In this document: one piece after another, positions 12,001 through 15,000 of the stretch
How the letters are laid out: the number at the start of each line of letters is the position of its first letter
Numbering within the stretch: position 1 is the stretch's first letter
Source: a virus
Taxonomy: Duplodnaviria; Heunggongvirae; Uroviricota; Caudoviricetes
IMG/VR virus record: IMGVR_UViG_2617270967_000014
Strand: one strand, 5' to 3'
Length of the DNA: 40,547 nt
Made by a program: the position numbers

Positions 12001-15000
12001 ATGCGATCGCTCCCAAAGAATATGTCTTTCAGCACATGAGGGAATCACAGTAAACGGAGCTAACAAAGCTCAACAATATGGAGATAAATTCAGAAGAATG
12101 TTTCCATACTACAGTCTCTATTCTACAGACACACTCCGAACAATGCAGACAGCCACTTTTTTTTCGGGAGGTAAGACAGCAACTATTCCGGACATATCGA
12201 CATGTGATGATAACGCAGTAAATAATATCCTTAAAATATCAAAATCAGATCATGTTACTGTGATTTTCACACATAATCACTGTCTGTCCAGAATTGCAAA
12301 AAAAATGAATGGATGGAGATTTAAACCTGATTATATGGGCACACTGGTTCTGCATCGGGAAAATCACAATCTGATTCTCGACGGACATTTAAAACCAAAC
12401 GAGCTTACCCAGTGATCCATTTGTTGATAATGCACTGGCATTGATTCAGGTTATATCTCTCCTCATAAAAAAGGCCAGCGATTGAGCTGGCTCTGTTAAT
12501 CGAGGCATTGCATCCTGATGTACTCCTGCAGGTAGTTAACCTGCGCGGTTATCTTGTCGATTCCACTTCGGAGACGGTAATAATTGAGTTCAGCATCTGC
12601 TGTAAGTCCTGAGCTTTCTCCATCGCCCATGCCGCTGGCTCCGGTCGTTGACTTTGCACAGGTGGCGGCGACTTGCAGGCGCTTACGCCCAGCAGAAACA
12701 TCAGCACGGAGACTTTCAATAGTCGCGTTAGCATCAGCAAGCTCCCTGGTGTATCTGGCATCGAGTGCAGCAACATCACGCTGGCGCTGCTGTATGTCAG
12801 CAATGGTGGCGTTCGCCTGGCTGAGTTTTGTCTTCGCATCATCTCGCTGCTCTTTGTAGGTGATGGCGTTATCACGGTAATGGTCTGTTGCCAGCCACAG
12901 CGATCCACAACCAAGCAGCAGGACAATAAGCACGCCATACAGCACACGATTCATATCACCACCAACGGATTGCCCAGACCAGAACAGCAATTGCCACAAT
13001 ACGAATGGCAAAAGCTGCCGCTCTTGTTAAATCCAGACTTGCTGGCGTCTCCACCTCAATGCCTTTCATAATGGACAACCTCAGAAAGAATCTTTTATAC
13101 TTCCTCACAGGGAAAGAACCTCCCTACCCATAATTTCTCCCTTGCCTTATTCAAGGTCAGAAACACAAAACCCCGCTTGCTGCCAACAAACGGGGTTTTT
13201 ACTTTTACTCACTTAAATTTTGCCAGTTCGCAGGATTTCGTGTTATCCGTTCGCGTTGGTCAACGGCATTTTTCAGCAGAATATTCTGCTTATCTGTCGA
13301 TACTCCAGCACGCCAGCGCGCTCTCCTGGTCACGCCGCGATACCTGCCCGTAACAGTTATTTGAGCGGTTCCGACAGTCCCTGCCGCCGTCATATATCCA
13401 TCGGCGGATTTCAGCACATGCACCTTTCCGGTCTCCTGCGTTCAGTTTCCGGTAAAACGTTGAGGTGAAGCATTTCGAAGGCCCGATGTTGTACGGACAG
13501 AATGACGCGATGCCCGCTTTCTGCGGTTCGGTCAGTGGCACTCTGATGTTTTTCTCCACCCATGCCAGCGCCTTATCACGCTCAATGGCGTTAACCCGGT
13601 CGCATTTTTCCTTCGACAACTTCATGCCCGGAACGACAGGTTTGCCATCCACCAGGATGGCACCGCGGCAGATAGTCCAGATACCCGCACCATCACGGTA
13701 TGCCGTGGTGTGGTTACCTTCTTTTTCGTCAAGAAACTGGTCGAGGATTTCAGGCGCAGAAGCGCCCGCAGCAATCAGCGCCAGAACGACCGCTGATAAA
13801 CCATAGCGGAATTTCCTGCTCATCAGCTTACTCTCCCCGCGCCGCCTTACGCCGGTCCTCTTTGATTTTGAAATACAGGTTAGTCAGGTACGTCAGCAGC
13901 CCAAACAGCAGACTCCCCAGCACGCCTATTGCCGCCCACTGAGACGGGGAAACCCTGTCCAGCAACTGCAGGAACCAGTAGCCCGTTCCCACCGCTGACG
14001 TGGTGTATGACACACCTGTTGTGATTTTTTCCATCTGGTACATACCCCGTCTCCCGCAATCCGGAAGCTCACAACAATATAAAGACCACCGGCACACACC
14101 GATGGTCCCTTGCGCATGCTTACATCATCATGTCGCTGTCAGGTGTAGGTTCACCGCCATCTGAAGCACTCCCGTCACCCGCGATACCTTCCGGCTCAGG
14201 AACCGCTGGTACGCCCAGCAGCTCATCCAGAATGGCATCCACTTCTGCATCAAGACGCGACTCAAGGTTCTGGCGGAGTTTCTGTTTCAGTGCGCTCCGG
14301 ACTTCTTCAGAGCGCAGGACTTCCTTCACTGCCTCAGCAGTGACCAGGGATGTGATTTCTGACATGGGATTTTCTCGCTGAAAGGGGTTGTTAAGGAGTA
14401 ACGGGTTCTTCGGGCTTGCTTCCGGCTGACTGACTGGCGCTGATTTTCTCAGCGGCCCTTTTATCAATCTGCCTGCACCAGAAATCGCGCACAGCCCTGT
14501 ACCCACCCGAAAGAAGATACAGCACACAGACCGCCGTACAGAAGTACAGCATCACCTGATGAATAAATGTCATAATTTCTTACCGTTATGGTTGACAATG
14601 AGAATTGTTTTCATTTAAAAACCAATGTACGAAAGCATCTTTTCTTTACATTCTCCATTGGGATTACCTCCGCCAGCTTCCATTCCTGCCGCTGGCGGCT
14701 TTTTTTAGCAATTATGCGGCTGCTCCAGCTTTGTTTGCTTTAACTTCCACCGTATCAATAAGTACAGGGTAGGTTTCTGCACTACCTGTAATATCCGTAA
14801 TGACAAACCTGTTGAGTCCATTAGCAGTATTGGCCCATTTCACCAGGTCAAACGCCTGTCCATCCACACCATCAAGCACCGGAGTAACATTAATGCTGTT
14901 ACTGCCCTTAAATTTAAATGCAAGCGTATGCCAGTCATGGTCGAATGCGCCAAACGTGCCAAGTTCTTTTTGTTGATTAACTGTATGATGGTATGCAACA

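Follow-up and report, generated by a model that had tools for sequence, protein, structure and literature searches.

A strongly conserved small-peptide gene with a predicted antisense promoter between the endolysin and spanin genes of enterobacterial prophages

Several phages carry an extra membrane-protein gene between or next to their endolysin and spanin genes, including those for LysA of P2, LydB of P1 and the releasin gp25 of Mu. A type I toxin can also take part in lysis: in the Stx2 prophage Sp5, HokW contributes to lysis and to the release of phage (PMC8621323). Here, we describe the junction between the endolysin gene R and the spanin gene Rz in a virus of the class Caudoviricetes (IMG/VR record IMGVR_UViG_2617270967_000014), of which the whole analyzed stretch of 40,547 nucleotides is referred to as the window. 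Both genes lie on the minus strand and are exactly 335 bp apart (12955–13289), as the initial annotation had reported. The best explanation of this insert is a flank of approximately 90 nt belonging to the 3′ side of R, followed by an autonomous, horizontally mobile small-gene module, which, judged from its sequence features, would consist of a bidirectional terminator, a leader of 60–70 nt, a peptide gene and a promoter on the opposite strand. Along the minus strand, the order is R flank, hairpin, leader with a mini-open reading frame (mini-ORF), GTG, ATG, TGA, and then the ATG of Rz.

The small open reading frame (ORF) in the gap is a real, strongly constrained gene. It runs on the minus strand from ATG 13069 to TGA 12956 (12956–13069) and encodes a predicted 37-residue membrane protein, MKGIEVETPASLDLTRAAAFAIRIVAIAVLVWAIRWW; its stop codon lies 1 nt before the Rz ATG (TGAnATG), and its last codons, GGTGGTGA, form the Shine–Dalgarno (SD) sequence of Rz, so that the hydrophobic ORF ending at the Rz ribosome-binding site noted in the initial annotation is borne out. 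We compared the region over 31 distinct DNA variants from IMG/VR and genome loci. Between the window type and the type represented by locus L139, the proportion of synonymous differences (pS) was 0.71 and the ratio of nonsynonymous to synonymous divergence (dN/dS) was 0.02–0.03, with four residue differences, all of them exchanges among I, V and L. Variable columns fell on third (25), first (6) and second (0) codon positions. A 42-residue ORF on the plus strand (13005–13133) was also considered; it shares its third codon positions with the sense frame, and third-position statistics by themselves therefore cannot tell the two apart. Its start and stop are not conserved, however, and changes in its half of the transmembrane domain (TMD) region are radical, in contrast to the conservative I/V/L exchanges in sense, which indicates that the sense ORF is the selected one.

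The gene product is predicted from sequence to be a single-pass inner-membrane peptide of 37 residues from the ATG and probably also of 50 residues from a GTG (12956–13108, minus strand), the possible long form consisting of MRKYKRFFLRLSI followed by the 37-residue form. The GTG at 13108, two codons before KYKR, is conserved and is replaced by ATG in L084 and L137; the G11/G12 homologue has an SD sequence and an ATG at the long-form start, together with an in-frame 3-nt indel. In variant L172, the short form is the only one present and the promoter is missing, which shows that the 37-residue part can stand by itself. The hydrophobic stretch of the 37/50-residue ORF, AAAFAIRIVAIAVLVWAI, is flanked by Arg residues; in size (below 60 residues) and hydrophobic transmembrane character, the peptide agrees with type I toxins.

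This ORF is already known as a hypothetical protein: on identical DNA, the 37-residue ORF is annotated by the Prokaryotic Genome Annotation Pipeline (PGAP) as WP_000675931.1. It matched PHROG families 4493 (E = 1.4e-24, with the 50-residue form, end to end), 1115 (2e-11) and 3246 (9e-5), all of unknown function, whereas Pfam, NCBIfam and PADLOC searches gave no match, either for this ORF or for the other small ORFs upstream of Rz. A profile search yielded 305 relatives in Escherichia, Salmonella, Citrobacter, Cronobacter, Klebsiella and Serratia. A literature search by peptide sequence and accession returned no paper and no functional study; a homologue downstream of the heat-labile enterotoxin type II (LT-II) genes was noted by Jobling and Holmes (PMC3252337). 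No holin family in Pfam or PHROG matched the peptide, and it does not have the build of a spanin, with three residues after the TMD, no lipobox, and complete Rz and Rz1 genes downstream. What the present analysis adds is the strong selection on this ORF, the structure of the module, the antisense promoter, the mobility across contexts, and the repeated occurrence of small TMD ORFs ahead of Rz.

Upstream of the gene, a terminator scan detected an intrinsic-terminator hairpin (13167–13199) with an A-run on its 5′ side and a T-run on its 3′ side. It comprises 15 pairs, six of them G–C, with the tail GTGTTTCTGA; on the minus strand, an A-run precedes it and TTTTGTGTTTC follows. The hairpin is regarded as bidirectional because the plus strand also has a T-run (TTTTTACTTTTAC). 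Its folding energy of −21.1 kcal/mol (z = −5.9) was equaled by none of 200 shuffled sequences. Across the 12 variants, drawn from four genera, that retain the hairpin, four of its pairs show compensatory changes. The initial annotation had placed a minus-strand hairpin and U-rich tract just after R; the hairpin and its tail hold, whereas "just after" is rough, the distance from the R stop codon being 91 nt, and the structure serves both strands. Homology between differing genomic contexts starts at this hairpin, which thus marks the 5′ boundary of the mobile module, and its spacing to the internal ATG ranges from 67 to 104 nt across variants.

The leader (13105–13143, minus strand) contains the SD sequence AAGGGAG (13143–13137) and an eight-codon mini-ORF, MGREVLSL (13131–13105), the stop codon of which overlaps the long-form GTG (GTGA). 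A leader stem-loop at 13126–13108 covers GGGAGG in the predicted fold. Salmonella has this mini-ORF too, in the form MCREVCSL. With its strong SD sequence and GTGA overlap, the mini-ORF resembles known coupling devices and, by analogy with them, may function as one.

The approximately 90 nt between R and the hairpin (13200–13289, minus strand) are non-coding and belong to the R block according to blastn comparison of the gap variants: this flank, covering the first 85–156 nt, is common to all gapped junction variants at 84–93% identity. A palindrome after the R stop codon, GCAGAATATTCTGC, was set aside, being imperfect in other variants, and a TTGACC-based promoter in the same flank was dropped for want of conservation. 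In phage GER2 (MG710528; L002, 1967–2835), R is 91% identical to the window R, whereas the 335-bp insert and Rz are 99% identical, which indicates recombination with a breakpoint close to the R 3′ end.

The endolysin–Rz junction is a structured cargo hot spot and no mere spacer. Contrary to the assumption in the initial annotation that R and Rz are normally adjacent, R overlaps Rz (GTGA) in only 6 of the 36 loci with this R type; the remainder have gaps of 297–298 bp (H-19B type, six loci), 334–335 bp (10 loci), approximately 488 bp (two loci) or approximately 1000 bp with an antirepressor gene, Ant (12 loci). Every gapped variant has a terminator-like hairpin approximately 90–110 nt after R, that of the Ant variant being a different one, and a small single-TMD ORF directly upstream of Rz, with at least five unrelated families overall; one of these ORFs is annotated in strain Sakai as ECs_5741. 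Among 80 Rz loci, Rz abuts the endolysin gene in approximately 44 (phage-21-type and lambda-type R) and a small TMD ORF is present in approximately 32. The genes that flank the insert are therefore adjacent in related phages (the six GTGA loci and the approximately 44 of 80 abutting ones), as is the case for morons. Loci L003, L011, L012, L070 and L172 illustrate the unrelated single-TMD families, at least five, that end at the Rz ribosome-binding site, where a single DNA sequence, GCTGGTGG(G)GTGA, gives the C-terminus RWW or LVG depending on the frame. In the K-12 Qin prophage, rrrQ and rzpQ overlap, so there is no homologue there.

The peptide is found at 78–100% identity in other contexts, along with relatives of 40–50% identity, and the hairpin, leader length, ORF and antisense promoter-like site travel together across genera and contexts. 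In Escherichia and Salmonella prophages, the module follows five endolysin types: the GH24 signal-arrest-release (SAR) endolysin of the window, an M15 peptidase accompanied by two other holins, GH108 with or without the LT-II A and B toxin genes in between, GH19, and a P22-type lysozyme with Ant. Downstream lie Rz alleles of 56–100% identity or a 60-residue lipoprotein gene. In Klebsiella and Serratia, the homologue is situated in a baseplate operon between the gene for a PF18352 protein and the sheath-initiator and Baseplate_J genes, which argues for a self-contained module and against a fixed component of lysis. There, the module (L177, 2395–2675; L178, 2525–2785) has a strong sense-direction terminator within the baseplate operon. 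Among 5426 complete E. coli genomes, 674 cover at least 80% of the 335-bp segment itself, and the O104:H4 outbreak lineage is one of the carriers.

Some of these contexts have features of their own. In L139 (1–1850) and L167 (E. coli C5, NZ_CP010122, 3137.8–3139.7 kb), two holin genes and an M15 endolysin gene are present and no Rz or Rz1 was recognizable, in L167 as far as approximately 5 kb downstream; the small ORF and the 60-residue lipoprotein (phrog_7528) occupy the usual place of the spanins. These two were considered as a minimal spanin pair, an idea rejected on geometry, the periplasmic tail of the peptide being three residues long. In L168–L171 (287–1424), the LT-II A and B genes lie between the GH108 endolysin gene and the module, and the lipoprotein gene downstream is truncated; in the two variants inspected, L168 and L169, the module hairpin is without a T-run.

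A 41-nt near-invariant island, AAGTATAAAAGATTCTTTCTGAGGTTGTCCATTATGAAAGG, surrounds the internal ATG (13062–13102). Clade comparison showed at most one difference in it between clades with 71% synonymous divergence (P ~0.003 if the constraint were solely coding). On the plus strand, the island resembles a sigma-70 promoter, TGGACA-18-TATACT (13072–13101), aimed at the hairpin, and this was the sole promoter-like site in a 2-kb scan, in which 1.7 were expected. A homologous site in the same codons was found in eight contexts, in L011, L139, L173, L177 and L178 by the scan and in L179–L181 by our own script; these contexts are the 48%-identical E. coli homologue, the L139 lineage, a GH108 locus, three Salmonella loci, Klebsiella and Serratia. 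For each region of 500–650 bp in the other contexts, the site was the sole match or one of at most three, with 0.2–0.7 expected. The −10 hexamer stretch is AAGTATAAA, for which AAATACAAG would be a synonymous alternative, and in Klebsiella and Serratia an AAG-to-AAT change (K to N) makes the −10 hexamer the consensus TATAAT.

From this promoter and the terminator, a cis-antisense RNA of approximately 70–100 nt can be predicted on the plus strand (approximately 13108–13206). It folds into three stem-loops (−26.4 kcal/mol, z = −3.0) and, as far as can be inferred from the sequence, would be able to pair with the leader and the mini-ORF, including the SD sequences of both. In the unrelated small ORF of the H-19B type, too, a promoter-like site on the antisense strand is directed toward the hairpin of that variant. 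On the sense strand, no promoter was predicted between the hairpin and Rz in the window, nor between the hairpin and the ORF in six scanned contexts; in L178, the sole plus-strand promoter match lies upstream of the hairpin. Rfam searches, at gathering thresholds over the whole window and at E values up to 10 over 12850–13400, gave nothing credible in the gap, the only match there being ohsC at chance level (E = 6.3). None of the Hfq-bound EcOnc small RNAs (sRNAs) listed for enterohemorrhagic E. coli (Tree et al. 2014) fell in the R–Rz gap of Sakai Sp4 and Sp15, in a mapping of EcOnc to Sakai that was partial and for a strain not shown to carry the exact 335-bp variant.

Taken together, we see an even chance that the insert is a type-I-toxin–antitoxin-like peptide module sitting at a cargo hot spot, expressed late and coupled to Rz. 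Lambdoid late transcription is Q-antiterminated, and Q-modified RNA polymerase passes intrinsic terminators; any effect of the hairpin is thus to be expected in the lysogen and not during late transcription. Under this interpretation, the opposite-strand promoter would yield a cis-antisense RNA of approximately 100 nt ending at the hairpin, which would mask the ribosome-binding sites of the leader, as Sok does on mok/hok or Rdl on ldr. Silencing of the peptide in the lysogen would be the joint effect of the terminator and this RNA. Upon induction, Q-modified polymerase would read through the hairpin, translation of the leader mini-ORF may open the structure, and the membrane peptide would be made late in infection, with Rz translated by coupling to the small ORF. 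The peptide would most likely perturb the inner membrane and assist or time lysis, as HokW does for Sp5, and would not be bound to a particular endolysin, holin or spanin. We infer the antisense RNA, the toxicity and any role of the peptide in lysis from these features, and regard a contribution to membrane failure at lysis as no more than plausible.

A broader proposal is more tentative, and we would sooner doubt than accept it: that the 37/50-residue dual-start peptide, its leader coupling and its cis-antisense RNA, which would end at the shared bidirectional terminator, represent a new type I toxin–antitoxin-like family triggering or boosting membrane failure at lysis, and that the varied small TMD ORFs directly upstream of Rz are an overlooked part of lambdoid lysis cassettes. 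In that case, antiterminated late transcription alone would release the peptide, and the prophages carrying the module in enterobacterial late operons would include Stx-, LT-II- and O104:H4-associated ones.

Several observations weigh against a toxin–antitoxin-like module. The promoter is a consensus match at 9–10 of 12 positions with an 18-nt spacer, and the island also encodes the conserved N-terminal extension KYKRxxLRL. All three island changes, found among the window-type, L139-type and L173 E. coli lineages, are synonymous in the frame of that extension, so that coding and promoter constraint are confounded; the invariance could in part come from coding constraint combined with a ribosome-binding site inside the frame. 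In addition, the lack of a predicted sense-strand promoter of its own is unusual for type I toxins, Pfam, NCBIfam, PADLOC and Rfam searches revealed no similarity to known toxin or antitoxin families (among them Hok, Ldr, TisB, Ibs, ShoB, Zor, sok and ohsC), and the strong sense terminator in the Klebsiella and Serratia baseplate operon is hard to reconcile with expression without antitermination.

In a different account, possible though clearly less probable, the peptide is a dedicated accessory of the lysis cassette, antiholin-like, releasin-like or spanin-associated, made late only and from two starts (50/37 residues) with no RNA antitoxin, the antisense "promoter" being a by-product of conserved N-terminal coding. 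The location between the endolysin and the Rz or lipoprotein gene in all sampled Escherichia and Salmonella lambdoid loci fits such an accessory, as do the TGAnATG junction with Rz, the conserved GTG, the synonymous or conservative nature of changes in the N-terminal extension, and the repeated appearance of at least five unrelated small TMD ORF families at the same place upstream of Rz. The dual-start layout also recalls S105/S107 and S21 68/71. A constant partner is missing, however: the endolysin (five types), the holin (several types) and Rz (very different alleles, or absent) all vary from locus to locus, and the Klebsiella and Serratia homologues are in baseplate operons, far from lysis genes within 5-kb loci. 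Moreover, the −10 hexamer stays intact or comes closer to the consensus even where the encoded residue differs, and synonymous variation in the island is far below that in the rest of the ORF. Of the lysis-modulating peptide suggested by the initial annotation, the peptide stands, given the strong purifying selection, whereas lysis modulation is doubtful as a strict rule in view of the varying contexts.

A lysogenic-conversion moron, with the peptide made in the lysogen from an unrecognized promoter and serving, for instance, superinfection exclusion or membrane stress tolerance, is unlikely. Small membrane proteins are typical exclusion factors, the module is mobile and terminator-bounded, and the same junction also carries Ant and LT-II toxin cargo (PMC3252337). 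However, where a moron would have its own promoter upstream and its own terminator downstream, the terminator here lies upstream of the gene and the only promoter predicted is antisense, no sense promoter being predicted downstream of the hairpin in the scanned contexts; PADLOC gave no match either. Still less probable is that the hairpin acts as a terminator uncoupling expression of Rz/Rz1 from S and R, a view close to the initial annotation, in which the spanin would be expressed independently of the endolysin. A strong terminator-like hairpin does follow R in all gapped variants, at the same place even where it differs in the Ant variant, but beyond the hairpin no promoter for Rz is predicted, initiation of Rz is coupled to the ORF before it (TGAnATG), and Q-antiterminated late transcription reads through such sites. 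As for a non-functional spacer or a gene remnant left by recombination, which the initial annotation had named as the contrary case, mosaicism at the junction is indeed pronounced, and some copies are frameshifted or truncated (L013/L014, P0028, P0038 and L168). A dN/dS of ~0.03 at near-saturated synonymous sites, an identical peptide across dozens of distinct DNA variants and retention in four genera effectively refute it.

The lysis cassette around the insert comprises the following genes. Upstream on the minus strand, a class II (phage 21 S-type) pinholin of 71 residues with a dual start at M1/M4 (13828–14043; Pfam Phage_holin_2_1, E = 8e-33), named "class II holin" by PGAP on identical DNA, is followed by R itself, a 933W-type GH24 endolysin of 177 residues with a SAR-like N-terminus (13290–13823; Pfam Phage_lysozyme, E = 5e-25; PHROG 7, endolysin). 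Downstream, on the same strand, lie the i-spanin Rz (12496–12954; Pfam Phage_lysis, E = 8e-37; PHROG 13) and, embedded in it, the o-spanin Rz1 of 61 residues, recognized by translation and carrying the lipobox VSAC (12549–12734). Convergent to Rz, a plus-strand gene (11801–12415) encodes an Ais/PmrG-like lipopolysaccharide (LPS) core heptose(II)-phosphate phosphatase (NF011945, E = 7e-60), which looks like a lysogenic-conversion moron that could modify LPS; a terminator-like hairpin (12474–12491) is common to this gene and Rz.

Elsewhere in the window, several RNA families were matched. A full-length STnc100 sRNA (165 bits; 16844–17049, minus strand) lies upstream of a SASA/NanS-p esterase gene (14712–16622); a 2026 preprint describes STnc100 as a prophage-encoded sRNA related to PasD. 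Pas sRNAs were considered as an explanation of the gap and found not relevant, being located upstream of the holin gene. Two tandem copies of C4 antisense RNA, each with isrK and the c4-a1b1 target unit (20191–20389 and 21776–21974, minus strand), look like a duplicated immunity/antirepressor control region of the P1/P7 type. A sok antitoxin RNA (110 bits; 23838–24012, minus strand) indicates that a classical hok/sok type I locus is present in the prophage as well. Unexpectedly for an E. coli prophage window, positions 3335–3420 on the plus strand matched sRNA-Xcc1 (73 bits), whose family was first described from Xanthomonas.

The module is present in approximately one-eighth of complete E. 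coli genomes and adjoins the lysis genes responsible for the release of Shiga and LT-II toxins. Were the peptide a regulated membrane toxin, it would provide an extra control point for prophage lysis timing and toxin release and would constitute a new type I family. Translation of Rz in these phages is probably tied to the upstream small ORF. More generally, very short and strongly conserved "hypothetical" phage genes are worth testing.

Compared with described systems, the locus shows both shared and distinct features. LysA, LydB and gp25 are larger than the small ORF product, unrelated to it in sequence, and each bound to a specific lysis system. With dual-start holin/antiholin pairs, such as lambda S105/S107 and phage 21 S68/S71, the gene shares two in-frame starts, basic N-terminal residues on the longer form, and the coding of a small membrane protein in the lysis cassette; unlike them, it has one weak TMD and no holin family match, it also occurs outside lysis cassettes, and the cassette already has its own dual-start pinholin. 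Like the endolysin–Rz morons, namely Ant in Sakai Sp15 and other gapped loci and the LT-II genes, it uses the same insertion site (PMC3252337), although it is a 37/50-residue gene with an upstream terminator and an antisense promoter and does not form a promoter–gene–terminator unit. To LdrD (35 residues) of the ldr/rdl loci, the peptide is similar in size, Ala/Ile-rich TMD and Trp/Arg C-terminus, and the antisense RNA predicted here would likewise be directed against the 5′ untranslated region and leader ORF; in contrast, there is no detectable homology, and ldr genes are chromosomal long direct repeats with their own promoters. As in hok/mok/sok loci, including hokW–sokW of Sp5, a small membrane peptide is encoded in a prophage, a short leader ORF has a stop codon overlapping the toxin start, and a cis-antisense promoter, here a predicted one, lies in the 5′ part and is aimed at the translation-initiation region of the leader. 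The differences from hok/mok/sok are that the gap has no Pfam Hok_Gef and no Rfam sok match, that the module is without a sense promoter of its own and has its hairpin upstream of the gene, and that the antisense RNA and the toxicity are predicted by analogy with those loci.

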